IMG/VR virus record: IMGVR_UViG_2721755710_000003
From: a virus
Lineage: Duplodnaviria; Heunggongvirae; Uroviricota; Caudoviricetes
DNA: 32,113 bases
Strand: one strand, 5' to 3'
Below are positions 1 through 32,113 of the stretch, piece after piece. The notes beneath the pieces were generated by a model. That model was given only the letters and a program-made list of their open reading frames with translations, had not been told where the DNA came from and did no database searches. How positions within the stretch are numbered: the first letter of the stretch is position 1; each line of letters begins with the position of its first letter. A program made the position numbers and the translations under genes.

Positions 1-276
1 TTACCGACTGCGGCCTGAGTTTTTTAAGTGACGTAAAATCGTGTTGAGGCCAACGCCCATAATGCGGGCAGTTGCCCGGCATCCAACGCCATTCATGGCC
101 ATATCAATGATTTTCTGGTGCGTACCGGGTTGAGAAGCGGTGTAAGTGAACTGCAGTTGCCATGTTTTACGGCAGTGAGAGCAGAGATAGCGCTGATGTC
201 CGGCGGTGCTTTTGCCGTTACGCACCACCCCGTCAGTAGCTGAACAGGAGGGACAGCTGATAGAAACAGAAGCCAC
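1..276 (-). CDS. insA: IS1 InsA (transposition repressor / N-terminal transposase component), complete 91 aa
   Basis: The ORF translation [43 protein letters not shown]... matches IS1 InsA as I recall it, with a zinc-finger CxxC...CxxC and an HTH region. The stop codon is at 1-3 on the minus strand. Confidence 0.92.
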
Positions 277-331
277 TGGAGCACCTCAAAAACACCATCA
301 TACACTAAATCAGTAAGTTGGCAGCATCACC
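1..331 (-). mobile_element. IS1, partial: insA-proximal end with terminal inverted repeat; the rest of the element lies beyond the window start
   Basis: Reverse complement of 281-331 reads GGTGATGCTGCCAACTTACTGATTTAGTGTATGATGG..., which I recognise as the IS1 left terminal repeat, and the adjacent ORF is InsA. The element boundary at 331 abuts phage gene A sequence. Confidence 0.9.
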
Positions 332-2317
332 GAGCGTGTGAATCAGCGCCATGAAATGAACACCGACGCGTCGTTGCTGTTTCTGGCAGAGCGTGACCAC
401 TATGCGCGCCTGCCGGGAATGAATGACAAGGAGCTGAAAAAGTTTGCCGCCCGTATCTCATCGCAGCTTTTCATGATGTATGAGGAACTCAGCGATGCCT
501 GGGTGGATGCACATGGCGAAAAAGAATCGCTGTTTACGGATGAGGCGCAGGCTCACCTCTATGGTCATGTTGCTGGCGCTGCACGTGCTTTCAATATTTC
601 CCCTCTCTACTGGAAAAAATACCGTAAAGGACAGATGACCACGAGGCAGGCATATTCTGCCATTGCCCGTCTGTTTAACGATGAGTGGTGGACTCATCAG
701 CTTAAAGGCCAGCGTATGCGCTGGCATGAGGCGTTACTGATTGCTGTCGGGGAGGTGAATAAAGACCGTTCTCCTTATGCCAGTAAACATGCCATTCGTG
801 ATGTGCGTGCACGCCGCCAGGCAAATCTGGAATTTCTTAAATCGTGTGACCTTGAAAACAGGGAAACCGGCGAGCGCATCGACCTTATCAGTAAGGTGAT
901 GGGCAGTATTTCTAATCCTGAAATTCGCCGGATGGAGCTGATGAACACCATTGCCGGTATTGAGCGTTACGCCGCCTCAGAGGGTGATGTGGGGATGTTT
1001 ATCACGCTGACCGCGCCGTCAAAGTATCACCCGACACGTCAGGTTGGAAAAGGCGAAAATAAAACCGTCCAGCTTAATCACGGCTGGAATGATGAGGCAT
1101 TTAATCCAAAGGATGCGCAGCGTTATCTCTGCCGTATCTGGAGCCTGATGCGCACGGCATTCAAGGATAATGATTTACAGGTCTACGGTTTGCGAGTCGT
1201 CGAGCCACACCACGACGGAACGCCGCACTGGCATATGATGCTTTTTTGTAATCCACGCCAGCGTAACCAGATTATCGAAATCATGCGCCGCTATGCGCTC
1301 AAAGAGGATGGCGACGAAAGAGGAGCCGCGCGAAACCGTTTTCAGGCAAAACACCTTAACCGGGGCGGTGCTGCGGGATATATCGCGAAATACATTTCAA
1401 AAAATATCGACGGCTATGCACTGGATGGTCAGCTCGATAACGATACCGGCAGACCGCTGAAAGATACTGCGGCGGCTGTTACCGCATGGGCGTCAACGTG
1501 GCGCATCCCGCAATTTAAAACGGTTGGCCTGCCGACAATGGGAGCTTACCGTGAGCTACGTAAATTGCCTCGCGGCGTCAGCATTGCTGATGAATTTGAC
1601 GAACGCGTGGAGGCTGCACGCGCCGCCGCAGACAGTGGCGATTTTGCGTTGTATATCAGCGCGCAGGGCGGGGCAAATGTCCCGCGCGATTGTCAGACTG
1701 TCAGGGTCGCCCGTAGCCCGTCGGATGACGTTAACGAATACGAGGAAGAAGTCGAGAGAGTGGTCGGCATTTACGCGCCGCATCTCGGCGCGCGTCATAT
1801 TCATATCACCAGAACGACGGACTGGCGCATTGTGCCGAAAGTTCCGGTCGTTGAGCCCTTGACTTTAAAAAGCGGCATCGCCGCGCCTCGGAGTCCTGTC
1901 AATAACTGTGGAAAGCTCACCGGTGGTGATACTTCGTTACCGGCTCCCACACCTTCTGAACACGCCGCAGCAGTGCTTAATCTGGTTGATGACGGTGTTA
2001 TCGAATGGAATGACCCGGAGGTCGTGAGGGCGCTCAGGGGCGCATTAAAATACGGGCTGAGAACACCAAATCGTCAGCAGAGAAACGGAAGCCCGTTAAA
2101 ACCACATGAAATTGCACCATCGGCCAGACTGACCCGGTCGGAAAGAATGCAAATTACCCGTATCCGCGTTGACCTTGCTCAGAACGGTATCAGGCCGCAG
2201 CGATGGGAGCTTGAGGCGCTGGCGCGTGGCGCGACCGTAAATTATGACGGGAAAAAATTCACGTATCCGGTCGCTGATGAGTGGCCGGGATTCTCAACAG
2301 TAATGGCGCGGATATAA
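332..2317 (+). pseudogene. A: Replication initiation protein GpA (rolling-circle HUH endonuclease), 5'-truncated by the IS1 insertion; about 100 N-terminal codons missing
   Basis: The frame is open from the IS1 boundary, with the first possible start a GTG at 338 and no ATG. The translation contains the HUH motif (PHWHMMLF) and the tyrosine motif (GYIAKYISKN). At about 660 aa it is shorter than the roughly 760 aa I recall for P2 GpA. Confidence 0.85.
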
Positions 2318-2673
2318 TGACAAAGATTCACAAAGTAAAGCTGCACGCAAGATATTTCAACCTTGTGCTGGAGGGAAAAGAAACGCACAGAATTTAGGGG
2401 GATAGCCGTTATCATGTGTATGAAGCACTTGAAATGTATCTGCATCACTTGGGAGTGTGTCAACGGGGAATTTCCATCTATGTGATTTTTTGAGAGCAAT
2501 GCAGTGAAGATAAAGATACTTATTATAAATCAATGTGATAGATGGTGCCTCGCAAACGTAAATGATAGTTTTGAAGCTTCAGGGCTGATGTCGTTCATAA
2601 GACTATGTTTACGCTATCATTTATGATAAAAATAATTAATTTTTATCATAAAGATTCAACAGAGGATATGTTG

Positions 2674-4179
2674 ATGAATCAACTAAAATCAATGAATATC
2701 AATAAGTTACTTTTGGATGTTGATAACCCTCGTTTCCCGACGTCAGCAGAAAATCAGCGTGATGCTATTGCCAAGATGCTTGACTTGCAGTACGACCGCA
2801 TTTATCGCTTGGCTAAAGATATTGCTTCGAAAGGTTTAGATCCGTCTGAAAACATATTAGTTTATCCTAGTGAAGAGGAATCTGGCTTTTTCGTCGTTGC
2901 TGAAGGTAATCGTCGAGTTACAGCCCTTAAACTTTTACACTCTCCTAGACTTGCACCAACAGAAAAAGCACGGAAAGCTTTTGAAAAACTTAAGATTACT
3001 CAGCTTAAAGATATTAATGTTATAGATAACTGCGTTCTTTTTGACGATGATGAATATGAGCATTGGGTCAATTTAAAGCATACTGGTCAAAATGCTGGAG
3101 TTGGAAGAGTTGAATGGACTGCAACAGAAAAAGCACGACATCTGGCTAGGATGGGTAAGCAGTCATTTGGTAATCAAATACTTACATTTATAGAGTTCAA
3201 TACTGATTTATATAAAGAGATAATTGCTAAAAAAAGACTTTTAAAAATCACAAACATCACGCGTCTTTTTGGTGATTTAAAGGTGAGGGATTATTTTAAT
3301 TTAAAAAGCATTAATGGAGTTCTATACTCATATCAGCCTTATGAACGTTTTTGTGTACAATTAAAAAATATTTTAGATGTAATGATTGAAGAGGATGATA
3401 AAGGTAAGGCTTGTTTTACTGTTAATAGGATTCGTAGCCAAGATGACAGGGTTACATTTATTATTGAACAAAAAATAAAACCTTCAGAATCTCTTTTAGA
3501 TAAGCCGTGGAGTTTACTAGAGCCTAAATCTTTTCTTACAGAGAAAAAACATGATTCTATTGACAAAAATGATGCATCTGTGAGTGTAAAGAAAGTAGGT
3601 CTTTCAGAAGGTGATGCCTTAAAGAATACAGGTGTGGATAAACAGGAAGATGATTATTCTAGACATGTAGGCACAGAAGAGAGTAAATCTAAAGTTTCGG
3701 GTACGGAACAGAATAAAAACAAGGGAAAAACTCCTCCTAAAGTAGATCGTAATGTGTTGGTGCCATCTTATGTGAAATTTAATTTTAGAGGGCATAAGAA
3801 ATGCTCTAGAATATTTAATGAGCTTAAGTCGCATCTGACATTTGATAACACCCCTAATGCTATCTCAATATTGTTGAGAATATTTATAGATCTCTCTGTA
3901 AGCACTTTTGTTGAAGAAAACAAGTTACAATTTAAGGAACCACATAGAACTCCAGGGCTTCATGATAAGGTTAAAATGTGTGCTAATTTCCTTCGGGAAA
4001 ATAAAAAGATGACGGGGAGTCAATGTACGGCTGTAATAACTTTCTCGAGCCAAATAACTAAACATGATGGTTCATTGCAGCAGTATGTACATAACCCACA
4101 CTTAATTCCCTCAAAAGAGGCTGTCAACACTGAGTGGGATAACTTTGAGTTGTTATTAAGCCTTATTTGGAGTGAGTGA
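2674..4179 (+). CDS. Accessory protein with an N-terminal ParB/Srx-superfamily domain (DUF262/DGQHR-like), a K/E/S-rich linker and an uncharacterised C-terminal domain
   Basis: The translation has INKLLLDVDNPRF followed by GFFVVAEGNRRVTALKLL, the ParB-type box pattern. The gene is strongly AT-rich. AGAGGA at 2661-2666 sits 7 nt upstream of the ATG at 2674; the ORF is open from 2605, with an alternative ATG at 2668, so the exact start is uncertain. Confidence 0.6.
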   Translation: MNQLKSMNINKLLLDVDNPRFPTSAENQRDAIAKMLDLQYDRIYRLAKDIASKGLDPSENILVYPSEEESGFFVVAEGNRRVTALKLLHSPRLAPTEKARKAFEKLKITQLKDINVIDNCVLFDDDEYEHWVNLKHTGQNAGVGRVEWTATEKARHLARMGKQSFGNQILTFIEFNTDLYKEIIAKKRLLKITNITRLFGDLKVRDYFNLKSINGVLYSYQPYERFCVQLKNILDVMIEEDDKGKACFTVNRIRSQDDRVTFIIEQKIKPSESLLDKPWSLLEPKSFLTEKKHDSIDKNDASVSVKKVGLSEGDALKNTGVDKQEDDYSRHVGTEESKSKVSGTEQNKNKGKTPPKVDRNVLVPSYVKFNFRGHKKCSRIFNELKSHLTFDNTPNAISILLRIFIDLSVSTFVEENKLQFKEPHRTPGLHDKVKMCANFLRENKKMTGSQCTAVITFSSQITKHDGSLQQYVHNPHLIPSKEAVNTEWDNFELLLSLIWSE

Positions 4180-4248: not shown

Positions 4249-5133
4249 ATGAAATTTTATACTCCATTAAGATACCCCGGCGGGAAAGGTAAGTTATCTT
4301 ACTTTTTAAAAGATGTTATTGAAAAAAACTCGTTGAATGATGGAGCATATGCAGAACCTTACGCTGGTGGTGCAGGGGTGGCTTTAGAATTATTATTGGA
4401 AGAGTATGTCCGTAAAATCTATATAAATGATGCAGATTTTGCTGTTTATTCTTTTTGGTCATCTGTTGTTAGTGATACTGATGAGCTTTGCCGACTTATT
4501 AGCCGAGCAAAGATAGATATGGATGAATGGTCTTTTCATCGCTATGTTATTTCGAATCCTTCTGAGTTTACTAAGCTTGAGGTTGGCTTTGCTGCGTTTT
4601 TCTTAAATAGAACAAATCGTTCAGGTATTCTCAAGGCGGGGGTTATAGGCGGGAAATCACAAAATGGAAAATGGAAAATGGATGTTCGCTTTAACAGGGC
4701 GGATTTAATTTCAAGAATTGAGAAGATAGCAAATTATAATCAAAGAATAGTAGTAACTAATCTGGATGCTTTGGATTTTCTTGATGCCTTGAATTTTATG
4801 GATAATATGGGAAAGGTGGATAAAAATAAAATTCTTTTGTATTTGGATCCTCCTTACTATATTAAAGGGCAAGGGCTTTACAGGAATTTTTATGAGCATG
4901 ATGACCATGTATTGGTTATGAAGAAACTCACAGAAATTAATTTCCCAAATTGGCTTGTTTCTTATGATAACGCTAAGGAAATTAAAGATATTTATAATGG
5001 ATTTCCGCAAGTTGAGTATTCATTGCAATATACAGCGCATCTCAAAAAATCTGGAGAGGAAGTGATGATTTTTTCTCCTGAAATAATTATTCCTAATACC
5101 CTGAAAGGGGTCTCAATGCCAACTTGCGCCTGA
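4249..5133 (+). CDS. Dam-family (D12 class) N6-adenine DNA methyltransferase, 294 aa
   Basis: Motifs align with E. coli Dam as I recall it: PLRYPGGKGK (Dam LKWAGGK), EPYAGGAGV (Dam EPFVGAGSV), FFLNRTNRSG (Dam FLYLNRYGYNG) and the catalytic LYLDPPYY (DPPY). The gene is AT-rich with a GAGAGGGA ribosome-binding site. Confidence 0.8.
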   Translation: MKFYTPLRYPGGKGKLSYFLKDVIEKNSLNDGAYAEPYAGGAGVALELLLEEYVRKIYINDADFAVYSFWSSVVSDTDELCRLISRAKIDMDEWSFHRYVISNPSEFTKLEVGFAAFFLNRTNRSGILKAGVIGGKSQNGKWKMDVRFNRADLISRIEKIANYNQRIVVTNLDALDFLDALNFMDNMGKVDKNKILLYLDPPYYIKGQGLYRNFYEHDDHVLVMKKLTEINFPNWLVSYDNAKEIKDIYNGFPQVEYSLQYTAHLKKSGEEVMIFSPEIIIPNTLKGVSMPTCA

Positions 5134-5280: not shown

Positions 5281-5299
5281 GGCGAGGCGGGGAAAGCAC
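5281..5299. other. cos: Phage cos site (19-nt cohesive-end sequence GGCGAGGCGGGGAAAGCAC)
   Basis: Exact match to the P2 cohesive-end sequence as I recall it, located between the accessory cassette and the 3' end of Q, where cos lies in P2. Confidence 0.8.
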
Positions 5300-5466: not shown

Positions 5467-6501
5467 TCAGTCGTTGTCAGTGTCCAGTGAGTAGTTTTTA
5501 AAGCGGATGACCTCCTGACCGAGCCAGCCGTTTATCTCGCGGATCCTGTCCTGTAACGGGATAAGCTCATTGCGGACAAAGACCTTTGCCACTTTCTCAA
5601 TATCACCCAGCGACCCGACGTTCTCCGGCTTGCCACCCATCAACTGAAAGGGGATGCGGTGCGCGTCCAGCAGGTCAGCGGCGCTGGCTTTTTTGATATT
5701 AAAAAAATCGTCCTTCGTCGCCACTTCACTGAGGGGGATAATTTTAATGCCGTCGGCTTTCCCCTGTGGGGCATAGAGAAACAGGTTTTTAAAGTTGTTG
5801 CGGCCTTTCGACTTGACCATGTTTTCGCGAAGCATTTCGATATCGTTGCGATCCTGCACGGCATCGGTGACGTACATGATGTATCCGGCATGTGCGCCAT
5901 TTTCGTAATACTTGCGGCGGAACAACGTGGCCGACTCATTCAGCCAGGCAGAGTTAAGGGCGCTGAGATATTCCGGCAGGCCGTACAGCTCCTGATTAAT
6001 ATCCGGCTCCAGCAGGTGAAACACGGAGCCGGGCGCGAAGGCTGTCGGCTCGTTGAAGGACGGCACCCACCAGTAAACATCCTCTTCCACGCCACGGCGG
6101 GTATATTTTGCCGGTGAGGTTTCCAGTCTGATGACCTTACCGGTGGTGCTGTAACGCTTTTCCAGAAACGCATTACCGAACACCAGAAAATCCAGCACAA
6201 AGCGGCTGAAATCCTGCTGGGAAAGCCATGGATGCGGGATAAATGTCGAGGCCAGAATATTGCGTTTGACGTAAATCGGCGAGCTGTGATGCACGGCAGC
6301 CCGCAGGCTTTTTGCCAGACCGGTAAAGCTGACCGGTGGCTCATACCATCTGCCGTTACTGATGCACTCGACGTAATCCAGAATGTCACGGCGGTCGAGT
6401 ACCGGCACCGGCTCACCAAAGGTGAATGCCTCCATTTTCGGGCCGCTGGCGGTCATTGTTTTTGCCGCAGGTTGCGGTGTTTTCCCTTTTTTCTTGCTCA
6501 T
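5467..6501 (-). CDS. Q: Portal protein GpQ, 344 aa
   Basis: Translation and length match P2 GpQ as I recall it. Its start overlaps the stop of P by 1 nt. Confidence 0.93.
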   Translation of the reverse strand: MSKKKGKTPQPAAKTMTASGPKMEAFTFGEPVPVLDRRDILDYVECISNGRWYEPPVSFTGLAKSLRAAVHHSSPIYVKRNILASTFIPHPWLSQQDFSRFVLDFLVFGNAFLEKRYSTTGKVIRLETSPAKYTRRGVEEDVYWWVPSFNEPTAFAPGSVFHLLEPDINQELYGLPEYLSALNSAWLNESATLFRRKYYENGAHAGYIMYVTDAVQDRNDIEMLRENMVKSKGRNNFKNLFLYAPQGKADGIKIIPLSEVATKDDFFNIKKASAADLLDAHRIPFQLMGGKPENVGSLGDIEKVAKVFVRNELIPLQDRIREINGWLGQEVIRFKNYSLDTDND

Positions 6502-8273
6502 CAGTAAAACTCCAGAATGGTGGATGTCAGCGGGGTGCTGATACCGGCGGTGAGTGGCTCATTTAACAGGGCGTGCATGGTCGCCCAGGCGAGGTCGGCG
6601 TGGCTGGCTTCCTCGCTGCGGCTGGCCTCATAGGTGGCGCTGCGTCCGCTGCTGGTCATGGTCTTGCGGATAGCCATAAACGAGCTGGTGATGTCGGTGG
6701 CGCTGACGTCGTATTCCAGACAGCCACGGCGGATAACGTCTTTTGCCTTGAGCACCATTGCGGTTTTCATTTCCGGCGTGTAGCGGATATCACGCGCGGC
6801 GGGATAGAACGAGCGCACGAGCTGGAACACGCCGACACCGAGGCCGGTGGCATCAATACCGATGTATTCGACGTTGTATCTTTCGGTGAGTTTGCGGATG
6901 GATTCCGCCTGGGTGGCAAAGTCCATGCCTTTCCACTGGTGACGCTCAAGTATTCTGAATTTGCCACCGGCCACCACCGGCGGTGCCAGTACCACGCATC
7001 CGGCGCTGTCGCCACGGTGTGACGGGTCGTAACCAATCCATACCGGGCGGGAGCCGAACGGATTGGCGGCAAACGGCGCATAGTCTTCCCATTCTTCCAG
7101 CGTGTCGACCATGCAGCGTTGCAGCTCCTCGAACGGGAACACCGATGCCTTGTCGTCAACAAATTCACACATGAACAGGTTTTTAAAATCGTCGGCGCTG
7201 TTTTCGCGTTTGAGCTGCTCAATGTCGAACAGCGTGCAGCCGCCTTTCAGGGCGTCCTCAATGGTGACAATCTGTCGCCACTGGCCGTCCGCACAGAGAA
7301 GCCCACCGGCAAGGGCGTTATGACTGACGTCGATTTCCACGCGTTCGGCGGCGCTGGCGCGTCCCCGGTTAAACAGTTCACCCGACCAGAACGGGTAGGC
7401 GTCGTGCGCCAGCGTGGACGGGGTGGAGAAATAGGTCGAGCGCAGGTGACTCTGTGAGGCCATACCTGATGCCACCTTACGCAGTACCTGAAAATTCGGG
7501 ATCCAGAAAATCTCATCGACGTACAGGTCGCCGTTATGACTCTGCGCGGTGTTGGAGTTGGTGCCGAGAAAAATCAGTTTTGCGCCGTTATTGCCCAGGA
7601 CAATCGGGTCACCGGTCAGGTCAACGTCAACCAGACGGGCAAAGGCGATGATGTATTCGCGGAACACATACGCCTGCGTTTTACTGGCCGACAGAAAAAT
7701 CTGGTTATGACCGGTTTTCAGGGCACGCAGCAGCGCCTCGCGGGAAAAATAAAACGTCGCGCCAATCTGGCGGGATTTCAGGATATCGCGGATGCGGTGC
7801 TCAAGCCCGGCACGATACCAGTGCAGCTGATAGTCGAAAGACTGCTCAAAGAAAATCTGCTCCAGCTTTTCGATGGCCTCGTCACTGAAAAAATTCTTTT
7901 TCGGTTTGCGCCGTCCGCCTTTGTTACGGTTAGCGACGTTCGGATTAAGGTCTGCCTCGTTGCCGGTCTGGCTGTAGCGGTTGACCCGTGCCAGTCGTTC
8001 AATCTGGCGTCCCAGCAGGTCAATTTCCTTGAAGTCACCGCCGGTTTTCTGTGGTTTGATGATGAGCTGGGTCAGCCGCGCTTCCAGACTCATTTCGACA
8101 CGGCTGATGGGGGCAACGCTGTCCCAGCCGTCGCGCTGTTTCCAGCTCTGCACTGTCGGGCGTTTCATCTGCAACATGGCGGCAATCTGCGGCACGGAAA
8201 ACCCCTGCCAGTACAGCAGCGCCGCCTGACGACGCGGGTCGTGTAAAAGAGTGGTGTCTGTGGTGATGGTCAT
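6501..8273 (-). CDS. P: Terminase large subunit (ATPase/endonuclease) GpP, 590 aa
   Basis: The ORF is open from 8303, but the P2-like protein starts at MTITTDTTLLHDPRR, giving 6501..8273. Gene order and size match P2 GpP. Confidence 0.92.
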   Translation of the reverse strand: MTITTDTTLLHDPRRQAALLYWQGFSVPQIAAMLQMKRPTVQSWKQRDGWDSVAPISRVEMSLEARLTQLIIKPQKTGGDFKEIDLLGRQIERLARVNRYSQTGNEADLNPNVANRNKGGRRKPKKNFFSDEAIEKLEQIFFEQSFDYQLHWYRAGLEHRIRDILKSRQIGATFYFSREALLRALKTGHNQIFLSASKTQAYVFREYIIAFARLVDVDLTGDPIVLGNNGAKLIFLGTNSNTAQSHNGDLYVDEIFWIPNFQVLRKVASGMASQSHLRSTYFSTPSTLAHDAYPFWSGELFNRGRASAAERVEIDVSHNALAGGLLCADGQWRQIVTIEDALKGGCTLFDIEQLKRENSADDFKNLFMCEFVDDKASVFPFEELQRCMVDTLEEWEDYAPFAANPFGSRPVWIGYDPSHRGDSAGCVVLAPPVVAGGKFRILERHQWKGMDFATQAESIRKLTERYNVEYIGIDATGLGVGVFQLVRSFYPAARDIRYTPEMKTAMVLKAKDVIRRGCLEYDVSATDITSSFMAIRKTMTSSGRSATYEASRSEEASHADLAWATMHALLNEPLTAGISTPLTSTILEFY

Positions 8274-9301: not shown

Positions 9302-9359
9302 CCGGCGTCAGCCAGTCCGGGAAAACCTTCACGATTAACCCTTAATTTCAGGAAAAACT

Positions 9360-10648: not shown

Positions 10649-10733
10649 TGCGTATTACCGTGAAGGAGATCGGTGAGTAACATCGATGGAGATCGGTTCG
10701 TGTCACTTTCACAGAACCGTTTTTAAATTACCT

Positions 10734-11483: not shown

Positions 11484-11494
11484 TGGATCCCGTA

Positions 11495-22609: not shown

Positions 22610-22612
22610 GTT

Positions 22613-23533: not shown

Positions 23534-25120
23534 TTATTTTTTTAAAGCCTTTCCGACGTTTAAGGCTTTTGCCAAGCCATAAAATATTTGATATTTCATT
23601 CCTGTTTTTATTTTTGGTGAGATATTTGCGTAACTTCTTTCTCTAAAACACCAACGTATAAACCTATTATTATCTTCGGTTGTTTCTATATAGCATATTA
23701 CATTGAGACCAAAAAGAAACTGAAGGAAGTCATTTGCAGTTGTCATGAATTTTGGTTTTGTTGTGGAAATGGAACTAATATGAGTTTCAAGTTGTTTATA
23801 TGCTAAGAGGTATTCAGCGTAATCAAAAGTATCTTTTCCAGAGAGGAATTCAAAGAACTTTAAAAAAATCTCATAATGTTCACTTCCATAATAAAATGAT
23901 AAATGATCTTTTATTTCTCCAAGTAAATAGTTAGAGTAATCTCTTTGCATGCTAGGACTTTCAAAGTCATCTAGACTAAATTGATTTTTCCCATCATCAC
24001 CGCTGGCGTGTGATTTGATAATTTCGAGCATCCGTAATATATCTCTTGGGCGATAATATGACCAGCGAAGGAAATTAATAAATGATGTGGGGTGGTTATA
24101 ATTATCATGGACGTTGGGTGAATCCCAAGGGAAATAATGGTCCCATGCCTGTCCCTTTTTAAGGGCCATGTCTTGCTGAGTCCTAAGCAGATGATCTAAT
24201 ACCTCAAATAATTGAGAGCTACGGTGGTTAACATATTCTGTCCGCCAGTCCAAGAATACTGAATTATCTCTGATTTTTGCGTTTTGATTTTGTAATCCTA
24301 TGGATTCAAATATATCTGGCCTGATCAAGAGAACGGCCTTCATTCTCCCTTTTCCTCCCTTTATACTTGGGAAGAAATCGTTGTTAATCTCCCAGACTGC
24401 GTGAGCTAATCCTTTTATACATTCTAGATAATCATCGTATGGAATTGAGGAAGGGCGGATATCAATACCATCGATAAATAAAATATGATTTTGAGATAAA
24501 CGTATTTGGCTAAAGGCCTCTTCAAATTTTTTTTGTATATAAAATAAATTTATCTGAAATCTGCTCTCAGAAAAAGATAAAGACTCTCTTTCTTCACCTT
24601 TTAAGGTTGCATGCTTATGAAGTAGTTCGGCTGCAACTTTTGACTCTTGAACAAAACTGAGGGCTTGAATTATTTCTGGTGAAAATGCCTTAAGATAATA
24701 CTCATCTATTGCATCATTAAGTGATGAGAATTTTGAATAATTTAGTAACTTTGAAATTTTCCCTTCTTTATCTAATACTTGTTTTGATATTAATAAATAT
24801 AGAATAACTTTCCATATGCCAGAGAAGTCAGACAAATTTAAATGCTTTTCAGATTTAAGAGTGATAAATTTTTGATATTCTGTCTCTCTTATATATTTAG
24901 TTGTAGCTAGCGTATTGTTAATATTGTTATTTGAGAGATAGATAGAGTATGCGGTTTTACCAGTACCTTTCTCTCCTACAAGAAACGATATATTTGGTTC
25001 ACATAATCTAGATAGGTGATTATCACGTATGAACACTTTGTTAAGTAATTCTTTATTCTCCCTTCTCTTATAATTTTCAGCATCAGCATAGCCAAGAGTT
25101 AGATCTTTGATTGGTATCAT
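23534..25120 (-). CDS. AT-rich P-loop NTPase (Walker A GEKGTGKT, Walker B-like ILFIDGID), 528 aa, antisense to the tail genes in the Z/fun position
   Basis: N-terminal motifs FLVGEKGTGKTAYSIYL and HILFIDGIDIRP. A GAGGT ribosome-binding site precedes the ATG on the minus strand. The roughly 300-aa C-terminal region has no motif I can recognise by eye. Confidence 0.7.
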   Translation of the reverse strand: MIPIKDLTLGYADAENYKRRENKELLNKVFIRDNHLSRLCEPNISFLVGEKGTGKTAYSIYLSNNNINNTLATTKYIRETEYQKFITLKSEKHLNLSDFSGIWKVILYLLISKQVLDKEGKISKLLNYSKFSSLNDAIDEYYLKAFSPEIIQALSFVQESKVAAELLHKHATLKGEERESLSFSESRFQINLFYIQKKFEEAFSQIRLSQNHILFIDGIDIRPSSIPYDDYLECIKGLAHAVWEINNDFFPSIKGGKGRMKAVLLIRPDIFESIGLQNQNAKIRDNSVFLDWRTEYVNHRSSQLFEVLDHLLRTQQDMALKKGQAWDHYFPWDSPNVHDNYNHPTSFINFLRWSYYRPRDILRMLEIIKSHASGDDGKNQFSLDDFESPSMQRDYSNYLLGEIKDHLSFYYGSEHYEIFLKFFEFLSGKDTFDYAEYLLAYKQLETHISSISTTKPKFMTTANDFLQFLFGLNVICYIETTEDNNRFIRWCFRERSYANISPKIKTGMKYQIFYGLAKALNVGKALKK

Positions 25121-25510: not shown

Positions 25511-26701
25511 ATGAGTGACTATCATCACGGCGTGCAGGTGCTGGAGATTAACGAGGGCACCCGCGTCATTTCCACCGTATCCACGGCCATTGTCGGCATG
25601 GTCTGCACGGCCAGCGATGCAGATGCGGAAACCTTCCCCCTCAATAAACCTGTGCTGATTACCAATGTGCAGAGCGCAATTTCAAAGGCCGGTAAAAAAG
25701 GCACGCTGGCGGCATCGTTGCAGGCCATCGCTGACCAGTCAAAACCGGTCACCGTTGTCGTGCGCGTGGAAGACGGCACCGGTGATGACGAGGAAACGAA
25801 ACTCGCGCAGACCGTTTCCAATATCATCGGCACCACCGATGAAAACGGTCAGTACACCGGACTAAAAGCCCTGCTGGCGGCGGAGTCGGTAACCGGTGTT
25901 AAACCGCGTATTCTCGGCGTGCCGGGACTGGATACCAAAGAGGTGGCTGTTGCACTGGCATCAGTCTGTCAGAAGCTGCGTGCTTTCGGGTATATCAGCG
26001 CATGGGGCTGTAAAACCATTTCCGAGGTGAAAGCCTATCGTCAGAATTTCAGCCAGCGTGAGCTGATGGTCATCTGGCCGGATTTCCTCGCATGGGATAC
26101 GGTCACCAGTACCACCGCCACCGCGTATGCCACCGCCCGTGCGCTGGGGCTGCGCGCTAAAATCGACCAGGAGCAGGGCTGGCATAAAACGCTGTCCAAT
26201 GTCGGGGTGAACGGTGTTACCGGCATCAGCGCATCTGTATTCTGGGATTTGCAGGAGTCCGGCACCGATGCTGACCTGCTTAACGAGTCAGGCGTCACTA
26301 CGCTGATTCGCCGCGACGGTTTCCGCTTCTGGGGTAACCGTACCTGCTCTGATGACCCGCTGTTCCTCTTTGAAAACTACACCCGCACCGCGCAGGTGCT
26401 GGCCGACACGATGGCTGAGGCGCACATGTGGGCGGTGGACAAGCCCATCACTGCAACGCTGATTCGCGACATCGTTGACGGCATCAATGCCAAATTCCGT
26501 GAGCTGAAAACAAACGGCTATATCGTGGATGCGACCTGCTGGTTCAGCGAAGAATCCAACGATGCGGAAACCCTCAAGGCCGGAAAACTGTATATCGACT
26601 ACGACTATACACCGGTGCCTCCTCTCGAAAACCTGACCCTGCGCCAGCGTATTACCGATAAATACCTGGCAAATCTGGTCACCTCGGTTAACAGCAATTA
26701 A
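25511..26701 (+). CDS. FI: Tail sheath protein GpFI, 396 aa
   Basis: Size and position as in P2. Confidence 0.92.
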   Translation: MSDYHHGVQVLEINEGTRVISTVSTAIVGMVCTASDADAETFPLNKPVLITNVQSAISKAGKKGTLAASLQAIADQSKPVTVVVRVEDGTGDDEETKLAQTVSNIIGTTDENGQYTGLKALLAAESVTGVKPRILGVPGLDTKEVAVALASVCQKLRAFGYISAWGCKTISEVKAYRQNFSQRELMVIWPDFLAWDTVTSTTATAYATARALGLRAKIDQEQGWHKTLSNVGVNGVTGISASVFWDLQESGTDADLLNESGVTTLIRRDGFRFWGNRTCSDDPLFLFENYTRTAQVLADTMAEAHMWAVDKPITATLIRDIVDGINAKFRELKTNGYIVDATCWFSEESNDAETLKAGKLYIDYDYTPVPPLENLTLRQRITDKYLANLVTSVNSN

Positions 26702-26713
26702 GGAGCCTGACCG

Positions 26714-27232
26714 ATGGCAATGCCGCGCAAACTCAAGTTAATGAACGTCTTTCTGAACGGCTACAGCTATCAGGGCGTTGCAAAGTCCGTCACGCTGCCA
26801 AAACTGACCCGTAAGCTCGAAAACTATCGCGGTGCGGGGATGAACGGCAGCGCACCGGTAGACCTCGGCCTTGATGACGATGCGCTGTCAATGGAGTGGT
26901 CGCTCGGTGGCTTCCCGGATTCGGTTATCTGGGAGCTTTACGCCGCAACCGGTGTGGATGCCGTGCCGATTCGTTTTGCAGGCTCTTACCAGCGCGACGA
27001 TACCGGCGAAACGGTGGCCGTCGAAGTGGTCATGCGTGGACGTCAGAAAGAAATCGACACCGGCGAGGGTAAACAGGGAGAAGACACTGAGTCGAAAATC
27101 TCCGTGGTCTGCACCTATTTCCGGCTGACGATGGACGGTAAGGAGCTGGTCGAAATTGACACCATCAACATGATTGAGAAGGTGAACGGCGTCGATCGGC
27201 TGGAGCAACACCGCCGCAATATCGGCCTGTGA
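26714..27232 (+). CDS. FII: Tail tube protein GpFII, 172 aa
   Basis: Size and position as in P2. Confidence 0.92.
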   Translation: MAMPRKLKLMNVFLNGYSYQGVAKSVTLPKLTRKLENYRGAGMNGSAPVDLGLDDDALSMEWSLGGFPDSVIWELYAATGVDAVPIRFAGSYQRDDTGETVAVEVVMRGRQKEIDTGEGKQGEDTESKISVVCTYFRLTMDGKELVEIDTINMIEKVNGVDRLEQHRRNIGL

Positions 27233-27288
27233 TTTTCATCCGGTCAGCCTGGCTGGCCGGTTAACCCTGATTCAGAAGTGAGAAAACC

Positions 27289-27564
27289 ATGAACAAAGAA
27301 AATGTCATTACCCTGGACAATCCGGTCAAACGTGGTGAGCAGGTTATCGAACAGGTCACGCTGATGAAACCCAGTGCCGGGACGCTACGCGGTGTCAGTC
27401 TGGCTGCGGTTGCAAACTCCGAAGTCGATGCACTGATTAAGGTGCTGCCGCGCATGACGGCACCGATGCTGACCGAGCAGGAAGTCGCCGCGCTGGAACT
27501 GCCTGACCTTGTGGCGCTGGCCGGTAAGGTGGTCGGTTTTTTGTCGCCGAACTCGGTGCAGTGA
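27289..27564 (+). CDS. E: Tail assembly chaperone GpE, 91 aa (zero-frame product)
   Basis: Small ORF between the tail tube and tape measure genes. Confidence 0.88.
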   Translation: MNKENVITLDNPVKRGEQVIEQVTLMKPSAGTLRGVSLAAVANSEVDALIKVLPRMTAPMLTEQEVAALELPDLVALAGKVVGFLSPNSVQ

Positions 27565-27716
27565 CGTTTCCGAAAAATCTCTCGGTCGATGACCTGATGG
27601 CGGATGTGGCAGTGATATTTCACTGGCCGCCATCAGAACTGTATCCCATGAGCCTGACCGAACTCATCACATGGCGCGAAAAGGCGCTCCGGCGAAGCGG
27701 AAACACGAATGAGTAA
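27289..27716 (+). CDS. E': Tail assembly chaperone E+E', produced by a programmed -1 ribosomal frameshift at slippery heptamer T_TTT_TTG (27537-27543); the product ends at TAA 27714-27716, overlapping the T start
   Basis: The slippery site was read from the sequence. The -1 frame is open from the slip site to 27716 (...VAELGAVTFPKNLSVDDLMADVAVIFHWPPSELYPMSLTELITWREKALRRSGNTNE). Confidence 0.75.
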
Positions 27717-30156
27717 CAATGTAAAATTACAGGTATTGCTCAGGGCTGTTGACCAGGCATCCCGCCCGTTTAAATCCATCCGCACAGCGAGCAAGTCGCT
27801 GTCGGGGGATATCCGGGAAACACAAAAATCACTGCGCGAGCTGAACGGTCACGCATCCCGTATTGAGGGATTCCGCAAGACCAGTGCACAGCTCGCCGTG
27901 ACTGGTCATGCACTTGAAAAGGCACGGCAGGAGGCCGAAGCCCTTGCCACACAGTTTAAAAACACCGAACGTCCGACCCGTGCTCAGGCGAAAGTCCTGG
28001 AATCCGCAAAGCGTGCGGCGGAGGACTTACAGGCGAAATATAACCGCCTGACAGATTCCGTTAAACGCCAGCAGCGGGAACTGGCCGCTGTGGGAATTAA
28101 TACCCGCAATCTTGCACATGATGAGCAGGGACTGAAAAACCGTATCAGTGAAACCACCGCACAGCTTAACCGTCAGCGTGATGCGCTGGTGCGTGTCAGT
28201 GCGCAACAGGCAAAACTTAACGCAGTAAAACAGCGTTATCAGGCCGGAAAGGAACTGGCCGGAAATATGGCCTCAGTGGGCGCTGCCGGTGTGGGGATTG
28301 CGGCGGCGGGAACGATGGCCGGTGTTAAGCTACTGATGCCCGGTTATGAGTTTGCGCAGAAAAACTCAGAATTACAGGCTGTGATCGGAGTGGCAAAAGA
28401 CTCCGCCGAAATGGCCGCACTCCGCAAGCAGGCGCGCCAGCTCGGCGACAATACCGCCGCCTCGGCAGATGATGCAGCCGGTGCGCAGATTATTATTGCG
28501 AAAGCCGGTGGGGATGTTGATGCCATTCAGGCGGCAACGCCGGTCACGCTGAACATGGCGCTGGCGAACCGTCGCACAATGGAAGAAAACGCCGCCCTGC
28601 TGATGGGGATGAAATCCGCCTTTCAGCTTTCAAACGATAAGGTCGCTCATATCGGGGATGTTCTCTCCATGACGATGAACAAAACCGCCGCCGATTTTGA
28701 CGGCATGAGCGATGCGCTGACCTATGCCGCACCTGTGGCAAAAAATGCCGGTGTCAGCATTGAAGAAACCGCGGCAATGGTCGGGGCGCTGCATGATGCA
28801 AAAATCACAGGCTCAATGGCGGGGACGGGAAGCCGTGCCGTGTTAAGCCGCCTGCAGGCACCGACGGGAAAAGCATGGGATGCACTCAAAGAGCTTGGAG
28901 TGAAAACCTCAGACAGCAAAGGAAACACCCGGCCAATATTTACCATTCTGAAAGAAATGCAGGCCAGTTTTGAGAAAAACCGGCTCGGTACTGCCCAGCA
29001 GGCTGAATACATGAAAACTATTTTCGGGGAGGAGGCCAGCTCAGCCGCTGCCGTGCTGATGACTGCCGCCTCAACCGGAAAGCTGGACAAACTGACCGCT
29101 GCGTTTAAAGCCTCAGACGGGAAGACCGCCGAGCTGGTAAATATCATGCAGGACAACCTAGGCGGTGACTTTAAAGCGTTTCAGTCCGCTTATGAGGCGG
29201 TGGGGACTGACCTGTTTGACCAGCAGGAAGGCGCGCTGCGTAAGCTCACGCAGACGGCCACAAAGTATGTGTTAAAACTCGACGGCTGGATACAGAAAAA
29301 CAAATCACTGGCGTCAACCATCGGCATCATTGCCGGCGGTGCACTGGCGCTTACTGGCATCATCGGTGCCATTGGCCTCGTAGCCTGGCCGGTTATCACC
29401 GGCATCAATGCCATCATCGCGGCAGCAGGCGCAATGGGGGCAGTCTTCACGACGGTTGGCAGTGCTGTTATGACCGCCATCGGGGCTATTAGCTGGCCGG
29501 TTGTGGCCGTGGTGGCTGCCATTGTCGCCGGTGCGTTGCTTATCCGTAAATACTGGGAGCCTGTCAGCGCATTCTTTGGTGGTGTGGTTGAAGGGCTGAA
29601 AGCGGCATTTGCGCCGGTGGGGGAACTGTTCACGCCACTTAAACCGGTTTTTGACTGGCTGGGCGAAAAGTTACAGGCCGCGTGGCAGTGGTTTAAAAAC
29701 CTGATTGCCCCGGTCAAAGCCACCCAGGACACCCTGAACCGTTGCCGTGACACGGGCGTCATGTTCGGGCAGGCACTGGCTGACGCGTTGATGCTGCCGC
29801 TTAATGCGTTCAACAAACTGCGCAGTGGTATTGACTGGGTACTGGAAAAACTCGGTGTTATCAACAAAGAGTCAGACACACTTGACCAGACCGCCGCCAG
29901 AACTCATACCGCCACGTATGGTACCGGTGACTATATTCCGGCGACCAGCTCTTATGCAGGCTATCAGGCTTATCAGCCGGTCACGGCACCGGCTGGCCGC
30001 TCTTATGTGGACCAGAGTAAAAACGAATATCACATCAGCCTGACGGGGGGGACTGCGCCGGGGACACAGCTTGACCGCCAGTTACAGGATGCGCTCGAAA
30101 AATACGAGCGGGATAAACGTGCGCGCGCCCGTGCCAGCATGATGCATGACGGTTAA
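27709..30156 (+). CDS. T: Tail tape measure protein GpT, 815 aa
   Basis: Long protein with a coiled-coil N-terminal region and Ala/Gly-rich hydrophobic segments; size and position as in P2. Confidence 0.92.
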   Translation: MSNNVKLQVLLRAVDQASRPFKSIRTASKSLSGDIRETQKSLRELNGHASRIEGFRKTSAQLAVTGHALEKARQEAEALATQFKNTERPTRAQAKVLESAKRAAEDLQAKYNRLTDSVKRQQRELAAVGINTRNLAHDEQGLKNRISETTAQLNRQRDALVRVSAQQAKLNAVKQRYQAGKELAGNMASVGAAGVGIAAAGTMAGVKLLMPGYEFAQKNSELQAVIGVAKDSAEMAALRKQARQLGDNTAASADDAAGAQIIIAKAGGDVDAIQAATPVTLNMALANRRTMEENAALLMGMKSAFQLSNDKVAHIGDVLSMTMNKTAADFDGMSDALTYAAPVAKNAGVSIEETAAMVGALHDAKITGSMAGTGSRAVLSRLQAPTGKAWDALKELGVKTSDSKGNTRPIFTILKEMQASFEKNRLGTAQQAEYMKTIFGEEASSAAAVLMTAASTGKLDKLTAAFKASDGKTAELVNIMQDNLGGDFKAFQSAYEAVGTDLFDQQEGALRKLTQTATKYVLKLDGWIQKNKSLASTIGIIAGGALALTGIIGAIGLVAWPVITGINAIIAAAGAMGAVFTTVGSAVMTAIGAISWPVVAVVAAIVAGALLIRKYWEPVSAFFGGVVEGLKAAFAPVGELFTPLKPVFDWLGEKLQAAWQWFKNLIAPVKATQDTLNRCRDTGVMFGQALADALMLPLNAFNKLRSGIDWVLEKLGVINKESDTLDQTAARTHTATYGTGDYIPATSSYAGYQAYQPVTAPAGRSYVDQSKNEYHISLTGGTAPGTQLDRQLQDALEKYERDKRARARASMMHDG

Positions 30157-30170
30157 GGAGGTGACGAAAA

Positions 30171-30650
30171 ATGATGCTCGCGTTAGGTATGTTTGTTTTT
30201 ATGCGCCAGACGCTGCCACACCAGACCATGCAGCGTGAATCAGATTATCGCTGGCCGTCAAATTCCCGTATCGGTAAACGGGATGCCTTTCAGTTTCTCG
30301 GTGTGGGTGAGGAAAACATCACGCTGGCCGGTGTGCTTTATCCCGAACTGACCGGCGGCAAGCTGACGATGACCACGCTCAGGCTGATGGCAGAGGAGGG
30401 GCGGGCGTGGCCGTTGCTGGATGGCACCGGCATGATTTACGGCATGTATGTCATCAGCAGGGTGAGTGAAACAGGGAGTATTTTCTTTGCAGACGGCACA
30501 CCCCGGAAAATTGATTTTACGCTGTCACTCACCCGCGTTGATGAATCACTGGCCGCGCTTTATGGCGATATCGGTAAACAGGCGGAATCGCTCATCGGTA
30601 AGGCCGGCAGTATGGCGACCAGATTCACAGGTATGACGGGGGCGGGATAA
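30171..30650 (+). CDS. U: Tail protein GpU, 159 aa
   Basis: Size and position as in P2. Confidence 0.9.
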   Translation: MMLALGMFVFMRQTLPHQTMQRESDYRWPSNSRIGKRDAFQFLGVGEENITLAGVLYPELTGGKLTMTTLRLMAEEGRAWPLLDGTGMIYGMYVISRVSETGSIFFADGTPRKIDFTLSLTRVDESLAALYGDIGKQAESLIGKAGSMATRFTGMTGAG

Positions 30651-31813
30651 TGCTGGATGCGCTGACATTTGATGCAGGCAGTACGCTGACGCCGGATTAC
30701 ATGCTGATGCTCGACAGCAGGGATATTACCGGCAATATCAGCGACCGTCTGATGAGCATGACCCTGACGGATAACCGGGGCTTTGAGGCTGACCAGCTTG
30801 ATATTGAACTGAACGATGCCGACGGGCAGGTCGGGCTGCCGGTTCGTGGCGCTGTCCTGACGGTGTATATCGGCTGGAAAGGTTTTGCCCTGGTATGCAA
30901 AGGGAAATTTACCGTTGATGAGGTTGAACACCGGGGCGCACCGGATGTAGTCACCATCCGCGCCCGGAGTGCAGATTTTCGCGGGACGCTCAATTCCCGC
31001 CGGGAAGGCTCCTGGCATGACACCACGCTCGGTGCGATTGTTAAGGCGATAGCCACCCGTAACAGGCTGGAAGCCAGTGTCGCTCCGTCACTGGCCGGAA
31101 TAAAAATTCCACACATCGACCAGTCGCAGGAGTCTGATGCGAAATTCCTGACCCGTCTTGCAGAACGCAACGGCGGTGAGGTGTCGGTAAAAATGGGAAA
31201 ACTGTTGTTTCTCAAAGCGGGGCAGGGAGTGACGGCCAGCGGTAAAAAAATCCCGCAGGTCACCATAACCCGCAGCGACGGCGACCGCCATCATTTTGCG
31301 ATTGCTGACCGTGGAGCCTACACCGGTGTAACGGCAAAATGGCTACACACTAAAGACCCGAAGCCGCAAAAGCAGAAGGTAAAACTGAAACGCAAAAAGA
31401 AAGAGAAACACCTGCGCGCACTGGAGCACCCGAAAGCGAAACCGGTCAGGCAGAAGAAAGCGCCTAAAGTACCGGAAGCGCGTGAAGGTGAATACATGGC
31501 CGGTGAGGCTGACAACGTTTTTGCCCTGACCACGGTATATGCCACGAAAGCGCAGGCCATGCGCGCCGCTCAGGCGAAGTGGGATAAACTGCAACGGGGC
31601 GTTGCGGAGTTCTCTATCAGCCTGGCTACCGGTCGGGCAGATATTTACACGGAAACACCGGTCAAAGTGTCTGGCTTTAAGCGCGTCATAGACGAGCAGG
31701 ACTGGACAATCACTAAGGTGACACATTTTCTGAATAATAGCGGCTTCACGACGTCCTTAGAGCTTGAGGTCAGGCTTTCTGATGTGGAGTACGAAACAGA
31801 AGATGATGAGTGA
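30650..31813 (+). CDS. D: Tail protein GpD, 387 aa
   Basis: Size and position as in P2; the start overlaps the U stop. Confidence 0.9.
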   Translation: MLDALTFDAGSTLTPDYMLMLDSRDITGNISDRLMSMTLTDNRGFEADQLDIELNDADGQVGLPVRGAVLTVYIGWKGFALVCKGKFTVDEVEHRGAPDVVTIRARSADFRGTLNSRREGSWHDTTLGAIVKAIATRNRLEASVAPSLAGIKIPHIDQSQESDAKFLTRLAERNGGEVSVKMGKLLFLKAGQGVTASGKKIPQVTITRSDGDRHHFAIADRGAYTGVTAKWLHTKDPKPQKQKVKLKRKKKEKHLRALEHPKAKPVRQKKAPKVPEAREGEYMAGEADNVFALTTVYATKAQAMRAAQAKWDKLQRGVAEFSISLATGRADIYTETPVKVSGFKRVIDEQDWTITKVTHFLNNSGFTTSLELEVRLSDVEYETEDDE

Positions 31814-31894
31814 TGTTTTTGTTTTATCTGTTTGTTTTGTAAGGATAAATTAACTAAAATGGCACCATCAACAAAACCGGAAGAGGTGCTCGCG

Positions 31895-32113
31895 ATGTTT
31901 CATTGTCCTTTATGCCAGCATGCCGCACATGCGCGTACAAGTCGCTATATCACTGACACGACAAAAGAGCGTTATCATCAGTGCCAGAACGTGAATTGCA
32001 GCGCCACGTTCATCACTTATGAGTCGGTACAGCGATACATCGTGAAGCCGGGAGAAGTCCACGCCGTAAGGCCGCACCCGTTGCCATCAGGGCAGCAAAT
32101 TATGTGGATGTAA
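31895..32113 (+). CDS. ogr: Late transcription activator Ogr (zinc-finger), 72 aa
   Basis: Translation MFHCPLCQHAAHARTSRYITDTTKERYHQCQNVNCSATF... with a CxxC...CxxxxC zinc-binding pattern matches P2 Ogr as I recall it; the ORF is open from 31832. Confidence 0.9.
   Translation: MFHCPLCQHAAHARTSRYITDTTKERYHQCQNVNCSATFITYESVQRYIVKPGEVHAVRPHPLPSGQQIMWM

Follow-up and report, generated by a model that had tools for sequence, protein, structure and literature searches.

The stretch of DNA analysed here, referred to as the window (32,113 nucleotides), is an ordinary and recently crippled copy of the well-known phage P2. It is very probably a P2 prophage at locI that was grounded recently by two unrelated transposable-element events within one Escherichia coli clone. 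The two lesions, an IS1-associated deletion at the left end and an ISEc12 insertion in the small terminase gene M, are listed with the other features of the window in Table 1.

Table 1 Features of the window and their positions.
Feature	Position	Strand	Remarks
IS1A, IRL/insA end	1..331	-	Annotated IS1A family transposase; window begins inside the element
Gene A remnant, codons 101-761	332..2317	+	96.4% identical to P2 28334-30319; annotated pseudogene, N-terminus missing
orf91 stub, cargo-swap scar	2314..2398	+	Sequence match to P2
PD-Lambda-5 gene A	2605..4179	+	Annotated start 2674, 501 aa; PDLC03998, E = 1.7e-167, profile 1-465 of 466
PD-Lambda-5 gene B, D12-class N6-adenine DNA methyltransferase	4249..5133	+	PF02086; PDLC04018, E = 1.4e-121, profile 1-280 of 291
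cos, 19-nt cohesive-end sequence	5281..5299	+	Identical to P2
Q (portal) and P (large terminase)	5467..8273	-	Full length
O (scaffold) and N (major capsid)	8447..10433	+	Nucleotide-identical to P2
M 5' fragment (small terminase)	10437..10648	+	70 codons plus 2 nt
ISEc12 (IS21 family)	10649..13229	-	2581 bp; istA 513 aa and istB 249 aa, both on the minus strand
M 3' fragment	13230..13766	+	Sequence match to P2
L, X, Y (holin), K (endolysin), lysA, lysB, lysC, R, S	13866..17233	+	Full length
orf30, non-essential low-GC accessory gene	17305..18090	-	Amino-acid identical to P2
V, W, J, I, H, G (baseplate, tail fibre, fibre assembly)	18174..23140	+	Full length
fun(Z), Sll1717-family P-loop ATPase, P2 hotspot 2	23534..25120	-	One amino-acid difference from P2
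FI, FII, E, E', T, U, D (sheath, tube, chaperones, tape measure, tail)	25511..31813	+	Full length
ogr (late-gene activator)	31895..32113	+	Identical to P2; window stops at the ogr stop codon

Identity of the prophage

Sequence matches to the P2 reference (Bacteriophage P2, Peduovirus P2; NC_001895 / AF063097) place window positions 332-2398 on P2 28334-30399 with 96.4% identity, 5281-10648 on P2 1-5368 with 99.93% identity, and 13230-32113 on P2 5364-24254 with 99.6% identity. The genomes are collinear, and identity over all shared segments (96.4-99.9%) exceeds the 95% at the nucleotide level expected of members of Peduovirus P2, bearing out the P2-type prophage recognised in a preliminary description of this DNA; in the late genes, identity to the reference is 99.6-99.9%. 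P2 gene order is kept throughout, and coverage of P2 is partial, with the early region deleted and tin/old replaced. As in P2, the element runs from gene A, here a remnant, via the late genes to ogr, and it retains fun(Z) and orf30 as well as identical cos, ori, late-promoter activator sites and terminators.

The integration site can be read from E. coli elppa10, whose yegS/yegQ (locI) locus is separated from the window by just 2 SNPs over 32 kb. Here, ogr is followed by attR and yegQ, and the attR core (AAAAAATAAGCCCGTGTAAGGGAGATT) lies 3' of ogr beside cyaR/yegQ, as in P2 integrated at locI, while attL has been deleted from the same locus. Unlike P2, the element lacks attL, int, C, cox, orf78, B, orf80-83 and codons 1-100 of A, its M gene is split by ISEc12, and PD-lambda-5 stands in place of orf91-tin-old. 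It further differs from P2 by recombination patches in A, lysA and H and by the loss of 7 bp from the interval that separates the V-operon terminator from the stop codon of fun(Z). A tRNA scan and an Rfam scan of the whole window returned no matches.

The IS1-associated deletion

At the left end of the window, IS1 joins codon 101 of gene A directly (331/332), leaving a remnant of A without promoter and start codon. The P2 ori nick site is retained in this remnant near position 1890, and the ori region is identical to P2 at 61 of 61 positions. The full IS1 copy, 768 bp long in elppa10, is flanked by AAAGCCCCC and GAGCGTGTG without a target duplication, and its far end adjoins the yegS-yegR intergenic spacer. 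A simple IS1 insertion would show an 8-9 bp duplication and a contiguous target; here, the flanks differ and lie ~4.6 kb apart in the ancestral arrangement (approximately 4613 bp when measured against an intact sister prophage), which indicates that IS1 marks the endpoint of a deletion rather than a simple insertion in A. As read from elppa10, the deletion took out yegR together with the attachment site and early genes missing relative to P2, up to codon 100 of A. An inversion at IS1 was dismissed, because in elppa10 orientation and synteny are native to either side of the element, with gat-yegS to the one and A'-late genes-ogr-attR-yegQ to the other. The genome from which the window derives probably shares the left IS1 junction of elppa10, the two being 2 SNPs apart. 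The orf91 stub, which is also present in intact sister prophages, is for that reason not a lineage-specific lesion.

The preliminary description had assigned the loss of A and M to two independent IS hits. Two different IS elements are indeed found at A and M, but the IS1 copy marks a deletion reaching from yegR and attL through int, C, cox, orf78, B and orf80-83; this could not have been detected at the time, because the window begins inside IS1. In consequence, int, cox, the C repressor, attL, B and a full-length A, all expected of a functional prophage, are missing, elppa10 being the source for the region between yegS and IS1. The suggestion that A and M supplied in trans could revive the element is therefore not upheld, since int, C, cox, B and attL are absent too and the P2 A protein is said, after work by Lindahl in 1970, to be classically cis-acting.

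The ISEc12 insertion in M

M is split after nucleotide 212, and its 5' fragment reads on into ISEc12 to give a 79-aa product. The inserted element has the hallmarks of an IS21-family ISEc12, namely istA and istB, terminal inverted repeats (TGCGTATT/AATACGCA) with internal repeats of the motif GATCTCC, and a short target duplication (5-bp AACGG, at 10644-10648 and 13230-13234), and it is 100% identical to the ISEc12 copy in PCP07014. When rejoined in silico, M is amino-acid identical to M of P2. By splitting M, ISEc12 leaves the terminase (P and M) incomplete. A comparable case has been described in tssM of E. coli ST131 clade C, where ISEc12 is likewise flanked by a 5-bp target duplication and is fixed in a clade of thousands of genomes (PMC10711316). 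In both cases, a single insertion knocks out a contractile-machine locus, yet the tssM insertion is fixed in a globally successful clade, whereas the insertion in M belongs to one minor clone.

Proposed history of the element

The two lesions suggest the following course of events. A P2 prophage would have integrated at the classical locI, between yegR/yegS and cyaR/yegQ. In one event, ~4.6 kb would have been lost in an IS1-associated deletion that arose either as an adjacent deletion or from recombination between a pair of IS1 copies; with the early region and attL gone, the element would therefore be unable to excise, to replicate or to express early and immunity functions. In the other, a simple transposition of ISEc12 into codon 71 of M, its 5-bp duplication still intact, would have abolished packaging and probably exerted a polar effect on genes L-S further along the O operon. 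The rest of the element, including cos, ori, ogr, the activator sites, ~30 late genes and the cargo, would be untouched because almost no time has passed, and not through any demonstrable preservation by selection. The late operons are predicted to be silent unless a superinfecting P2-like or P4-like element supplies Ogr or a satellite delta-type activator.

Late genes and regulatory sites

All late genes other than M (Q, P, O, N, L, X, Y, K, lysA, lysB, lysC, R, S, V, W, J, I, H, G, FI, FII, E, E', T, U, D and ogr) have the P2 length and the P2 start codon, and a frame-by-frame comparison with P2 found no internal stops or frameshifts in any of them. This agrees with the preliminary description, in which every late gene but M was full length, and the frameshift survey proposed there revealed no additional inactivating lesion in the late genes beyond A and M. 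Q shows no amino-acid differences from P2 and P only one (K465R), while the recombination patch in H (20899-21286) is mostly synonymous. Similarly, 12 of 12 checked regulatory sites are identical to P2, among them cos, the activator sites, the terminators, the E/E' slip site, the ogr promoter Pogr (31832-31861) and ori; the late activator sites, three for four late promoters, are untouched.

Accessory loci

The cassette in P2 hotspot 1 (2605-5133) consists of two genes in place of tin/old. It was identified as PD-lambda-5 by PADLOC alone, with adjacent genes A and B each matching its family profile over the full length, while Pfam and NCBIfam searches returned nothing for PD-lambda-5 A or orf30. 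The reference system confers phage resistance as a validated broad-range defence (Vassallo et al. 2022, PMC9519451). As in that system, A and B of the window lie between the replication endonuclease and portal genes of a P2-like prophage, and nothing notable sets the two apart, gene A of the window carrying the lineage-specific changes A251V and S307P.

The frames of PD-lambda-5, orf30 and fun(Z) are all full length, so that the three accessory loci are intact, as first described. All three are located away from the late operons: fun(Z) and orf30 are encoded on the opposite strand, and PD-lambda-5 occupies the place of old/tin. In the cargo region, promoter and terminator patterns were no more numerous than in shuffled sequence. 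Presumably, these loci are still expressed and provide anti-phage protection, as would be expected in any P2 lysogen. The strain keeps PD-lambda-5, validated as the reference system, and fun(Z) locked in its chromosome, and incoming P2-like or P4-like elements could recombine with its late genes or activate them in trans.

Relatives and age of the lesions

Each lesion junction (IS1/A and ISEc12/M) was found in one of 5426 complete E. coli genomes. In addition, contigs of at least six other samples are 100% identical to the window over the fragments recovered; several of these samples also show the A' lesion, and the truncated A' product is found on eight contigs. A sister prophage in E. coli O169:H41 Res13-Lact-PER13-34 (NZ_CP062824.1) occupies the same site, carries the same three accessory loci, is apparently intact and shows 99.7-99.8% identity to the window; the 61 SNPs between them fall mostly within two mostly synonymous recombination patches. 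Unlike the window, it has a complete int-C-cox-B-A region and an uninterrupted M, with neither IS1 nor ISEc12, and represents the ancestral state of the element. The same cargo is found in ~20 other complete genomes, in which gene A is annotated as replication endonuclease and IS1 is absent from the junction, and the two sister prophages checked in detail are otherwise intact.

A further relative at locI is the cryptic prophage PR-X of E. coli K-12 (ogrK plus yegZ), a P2-type remnant in which, as in the window, the part next to attR survives (ogr and the 3' end of D). This 629-bp remnant is 97.6% identical to window positions 31607-32113. While the window retains ~29 kb, PR-X keeps only about 0.6 kb, and the two are an early stage and the end stage of the same decay path at locI. 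Beyond such bookkeeping the importance of the window is small, as it presents a textbook early stage of prophage decay. The doubly damaged element occurs in several independent samples and has thus lasted long enough for the clone to spread, an observation that is compatible with a benefit without being evidence of one.

Domestication or neutral persistence

According to the preliminary description, the element is a domesticated prophage retained for its cargo rather than a recently decayed one. In this explanation, selection keeps the element for its defence cargo (PD-lambda-5, fun(Z) and orf30), and the frames are intact as a result. The cargo does comprise a validated broad-range defence system and known P2 conversion genes, the loss of int, cox and attL would fix it in the chromosome, and the element has been seen in several samples. 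Moreover, the scattered lineage-specific changes relative to the sister prophage comprise 5 nonsynonymous against 6 synonymous substitutions, fewer nonsynonymous ones than expected under neutrality (P = 0.03). This deficit could reflect purifying selection, but it is not datable to after the lesions, and the simplest dating places it before them; the carriers themselves differ by 0-2 substitutions, too few for statistical power on post-lesion selection.

Selection on the cargo would also leave ~19 kb of intact late genes unexplained, whereas chance suffices at such low divergence. Under neutrality, a nonsense mutation would be avoided with a probability of 0.96 after 2 substitutions and of 0.80 after 10, and intact late frames are thus expected because so few substitutions have occurred. 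As a useful caution, intact frames in a freshly inactivated prophage are uninformative on selection. The term domesticated defective prophage is used here in the sense reportedly given to it by Bobay, Touchon and Rocha in 2014, that is, the same defect conserved vertically across diverged hosts. Here, the junctions are private to one lineage (1/5426), and what was recovered from other carriers matches the window at 100% identity. Nor is the cargo specifically tied to degraded copies, because the ~20 further genomes with the same cargo lack the IS1 junction and the two examined sisters are otherwise intact. With private junctions, identical carriers, an intact sister and a neutral expectation that accounts for the frames, retention for cargo is considered unlikely, and the recent grounding of an ordinary P2 prophage is preferred.

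The intact late genes could alternatively be read as an inducible tailocin or a late-gene reservoir. With M broken, heads could not package DNA, but activation by Ogr or delta would set free contractile tails able to kill competitors, or furnish incoming P2-like phages with parts. In sequence, ogr, the activator-binding sites and all tail and lysis genes differ little or not at all from those of P2, and the late genes of a P2 prophage can be activated by P4 delta. However, an R-type tailocin is free of capsid and packaging genes, and here Q, P, O, N and L are present and intact; all head genes but M remain, without any streamlining. There is also no built-in trigger, as the early region is gone and P2 is not known to be SOS-inducible. 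Within the O operon, the ISEc12 copy precedes the lysis genes, on which it is likely polar, and the state is too recent for adaptation, making this explanation highly improbable. Finally, an assembly artefact, in which misplaced IS elements disguise an intact prophage, has a negligible chance of being correct: nothing specific speaks for it other than that IS copies are classic misassembly sites, while the same junctions occur in one complete genome and in independent short-read and metagenome contigs spanning them, and the 5-bp duplication around ISEc12 is clean.

A possible target preference of ISEc12

The only lead of some general interest concerns the position of ISEc12. Contig L008 (SRR10286125) carries ISEc12 at the very nucleotide of M that is interrupted in the window, in a backbone that is 97.7% identical and has different hotspot cargo. 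Six mismatches to the window lie within 105 nt of the M/ISEc12 junction, the nearest 38 nt away, making transfer of the disrupted M into L008 by homologous recombination unlikely; by this sequence comparison, ISEc12 appears to have hit the same nucleotide independently in two P2 backbones. Other complete genomes carry ISEc12 at three more positions within ~580 bp, and every one of these insertions points the same way; no insertion in the reverse orientation turned up among the 5426 genomes. It might tentatively be speculated, although the odds are against it, that ISEc12 selects the M region of P2-like prophages as its target, always inserting in a single orientation, so that such prophages are repeatedly grounded. 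In elppa10, the copy in M is the sole chromosomal ISEc12.

Identity and map of the prophage

This prophage is an ordinary P2 that has been grounded recently, and its cargo has already been described. BLAST against phage records identified the window as bacteriophage P2 itself, and direct alignment with the P2 reference resolved three collinear blocks, whose order in the window is that expected for integrated P2, as well as three non-P2 stretches (see table). Only 2 SNPs separate the window from the E. coli genome elppa10 (NZ_CP083478.1), a Taiwanese bloodstream isolate carrying a near-identical prophage at locI, between yegS and yegQ. The components, namely P2, IS1, ISEc12, PD-lambda-5, fun(Z) and the locI site, are all already known, and the A and M pseudogenes of elppa10 are already in the RefSeq annotation.

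Features of the prophage and their coordinates
Feature	Window	P2	Content	Identity or remark
P2 block 1	332-2398	28334-30399	gene A codon 101 to first bases of orf91	96.4%
P2 block 2	5281-10648	1-5368	cos, Q, P, O, N to M nucleotide 212	99.93%
P2 block 3	13230-32113	5364-24254	remaining M to ogr stop codon	99.6%
IS1 end (non-P2)	1-331		IRL/insA end of IS1	fused to A codon 101
Low-GC cargo (non-P2)	2399-5280
IS21-family element (non-P2), annotated ISEc12	10649-13229		IstA 513 aa, IstB 249 aa	2581 bp, minus strand
Patch in A	977-1741			vs Res13-Lact-PER13-34 prophage
Patch in H	20899-21286			vs Res13-Lact-PER13-34 prophage
Further ISEc12 sites		5472-5476; 5697-5701; 5936-5940		other genomes
P2-identical features			cos; Q, O-operon and V-operon terminators; O-operon attenuator; three Ogr/activator binding sites; E/E' slip region; E' extension; ogr promoter; ori nick region	identical to P2

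The IS1 lesion at gene A

The preliminary description had ascribed the loss of A and M to two IS hits. Both genes are indeed broken, but the damage was under-called, as IS1 marks a deletion of ~4.6 kb and the lesion in A is not a simple IS hit. In elppa10, IS1 is complete (768 bp) and no target duplication is found at it. Its IRL/insA end is joined to A, while the other end lies in the yegS-yegR intergenic spacer, ~250 bp from yegS, and native orientation is kept on both flanks (gat-yegS // A'-late genes-ogr-attR-yegQ, where A' is the truncated gene A). The same interval is occupied in the sister prophages of E. coli strains PCP07014 and Res13-Lact-PER13-34 by yegR, attL, int, C, cox, orf78, B, orf80-83 and the 5' end of A, and ~4.6 kb has therefore been lost. 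The functions lost thus extend beyond A alone: integration/excision and immunity are gone, as are the early promoter region and the two replication genes. The extent of this deletion was invisible in the preliminary description because the window starts within IS1, and we infer the left IS1 junction in the window's own genome from its 2-SNP relative elppa10. Both right-hand junctions are present on a draft contig from another assembly that runs from IS1 to ISEc12.

ISEc12 in gene M

The disruption of M by an IS was correctly recognized: ISEc12 has split the gene by a simple, clean transposition. The termini, TGCGTATT and AATACGCA, carry multiple terminal repeats of the IS21-family type, and a perfect duplication of 5 bp, AACGG, borders the element on either side (window 10644-10648 and 13230-13234; P2 5364-5368); ISEc12 in tssM of ST131 is likewise reported with a 5-bp duplication (PMC10711316). 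Lying inside the O operon, the element probably has a polar effect on L-S, the lysis genes among them. The elppa10 chromosome appears to hold no ISEc12 other than the one in M; junction queries give no other place, and the only ISEc12 insertion of this genome therefore lies within the prophage.

The M region of P2 may be a target hot spot for ISEc12. The exact 79-aa truncated M product (M') is also encoded on a contig from SRR10286125 (L008), which has a clearly different P2 backbone, only 97.7% identical to the window, and other cargo at hotspot 1. Six mismatches fall inside 105 nt of the ISEc12 junction on this contig (8203-8442), and ISEc12 looks to have entered there independently, hitting the nucleotide used in the window and with the orientation seen there. 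Three further insertion positions, spread over ~580 bp of the M region (see table), are occupied by ISEc12 in four other complete genomes, always in the orientation of the window copy, and a query of 5426 genomes returned no ISEc12 in the opposite orientation in the M region. With ~5 independent events (two-sided P ~0.06), the orientation bias is only suggestive. The PCP07014 sister prophage has its own ISEc12 (L004 8819-11399), 100% identical to the window copy; it interrupts orf82 and has produced a 6-bp duplication, CTTTGA, in a prophage that is otherwise intact.

Late genes and regulatory sites

The P2 late genes were located in the window one by one, and their translations were examined. 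Length and start codon are those of P2 in 26 genes (Q, P, O, N, L, X, Y, K, lysA, lysB, lysC, R, S, V, W, J, I, H, G, FI, FII, E, T, U, D and ogr), none of which contains an internal stop or frameshift, and half of them (13/26) have zero amino-acid changes relative to P2. Gene M with the IS excised in silico encodes a protein identical to P2 M, the E/E' slip region and E' extension are identical to P2 at the nucleotide level, and, with these two included, all 12 regulatory features checked match P2 exactly (see table). Since frames and regulatory sites match P2, the view that the late genes are otherwise undamaged holds. The sole indel relative to P2 within 18.9 kb is a 7-bp deletion (window 23528-23535), absent from P2 and the sister prophage, in the T-tract that separates the stem of the V-operon terminator from the stop codon of fun(Z). 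Both the terminator T-tract and the fun(Z) 3' untranslated end are shortened, but no reading frame is affected and nothing is disrupted.

Accessory loci

Full-length profile matches identify the cassette at window 2605-5133 as PD-Lambda-5, with E = 1.7e-167 for gene A and E = 1.4e-121 for gene B, the latter a D12-class adenine methyltransferase. PD-lambda-5 provides broad-range defence, as validated by experiment, and Vassallo et al. (2022) characterize it as RM+Abi-like and compact. In the window it is placed between the genes for the replication endonuclease and the portal, a slot known as a P2 defence hotspot that holds tin and old in P2 itself, while fun(Z), a Sll1717-family P-loop ATPase, occupies the second P2 hotspot (Vassallo et al. 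2022). The third locus, orf30, is amino-acid identical to that of P2. The reading frames of all three loci are intact, as originally proposed, and presumably these genes continue to be expressed and to protect the host. The orf91 stub, also found in the intact sister prophages, is a scar of the cargo swap. Compared with the allele of two sister prophages, PD-lambda-5 A carries two lineage-specific non-synonymous changes, A251V and S307P (window 3356 and 3523), and zero synonymous ones, numbers too small for interpretation; S307P falls where a low-complexity linker begins.

Recent grounding or domestication

The preliminary description favoured a domesticated prophage over a recently decayed one. 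This reading is not supported, and four lines of evidence favour recency. First, junction-spanning queries (M::ISEc12 and IS1::A) against 5426 complete E. coli genomes found each exact junction in a single genome, that of elppa10. Second, exact-protein look-ups retrieved the 79-aa M' on 12 contigs and the 653-aa A' on eight, from several isolates and metagenomes, and every window-type M' contig inspected is 100% identical to the window. The carriers, among them GCA_958313695.1, SRR6292797, SRR22877846 and ERR13927796, represent one young clone and not a conserved state.

Third, Res13-Lact-PER13-34 (E. coli O169:H41, NZ_CP062824.1) carries an apparently intact sister prophage at the same site, and its three cargo loci are those of the window. 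Of the 61 positions at which the two differ, 42 fall in two mostly synonymous patches, in A and H (see table), which are recombination imports and not decay. A short, mostly synonymous cluster is also seen in lysA (15375-15800) relative to P2, a signature of recombination among P2-like phages and not of decay by point mutation.

Fourth, a neutral calculation with random substitutions over 19.3 kb of late coding sequence showed that 3.3% of them create a stop under strict neutrality. With 2-10 substitutions since the lesions, the probability of no nonsense mutation is 0.96-0.80, and intact frames are therefore uninformative on selection. The scattered lineage-specific changes comprise five non-synonymous and six synonymous ones; the non-synonymous changes are fewer than neutral (P = 0.03), and these changes date most simply to the time when the phage was still functional.

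PD-lambda-5 occupies the hotspot in ~20 other complete genomes, where gene A is annotated as replication endonuclease and the junction is without IS1, and the two sister prophages examined in detail (PCP07014 and Res13-Lact-PER13-34) are otherwise intact. The cargo is therefore not specifically tied to degraded copies.

Capability and mobilisation

The element is unable to excise (int, cox and attL missing), replicate (B and the early promoter missing, A truncated) or package its DNA (M split). In the late operons, the activator sites and ogr are intact. The P2 A protein is classically said to be cis-acting. The suggested complementation in trans by A together with M would not restore the element, because A acts in cis and the other lost functions would remain absent. 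Homologous recombination with P2-like phages entering the cell is the realistic route of mobilisation, and the A, H and lysA patches show that such recombination occurs within the family.

The K-12 remnant and rotated genome records

Like the window's element, the K-12 remnant PR-X (ogrK + yegZ; 629 bp) is situated at locI, and it is 97.6% identical to window 31607-32113. As PR-X (L003 7184-7821) corresponds to the last 507 bp of the window and occupies the same site, it represents the end stage of decay and the window an early stage. Many RefSeq 'complete' E. coli chromosomes are rotated so as to be numbered from the start codon of a P2-type gene A, and rotated records (H17, H21, H22, H24, H25, H30, H31, H34 and H36; L005) match window 332 from position 300 or 301. 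Presumably, a start-fixing tool took the prophage replication gene for the chromosome origin, and with the chromosome start set at gene A, the prophage is split over the record ends.
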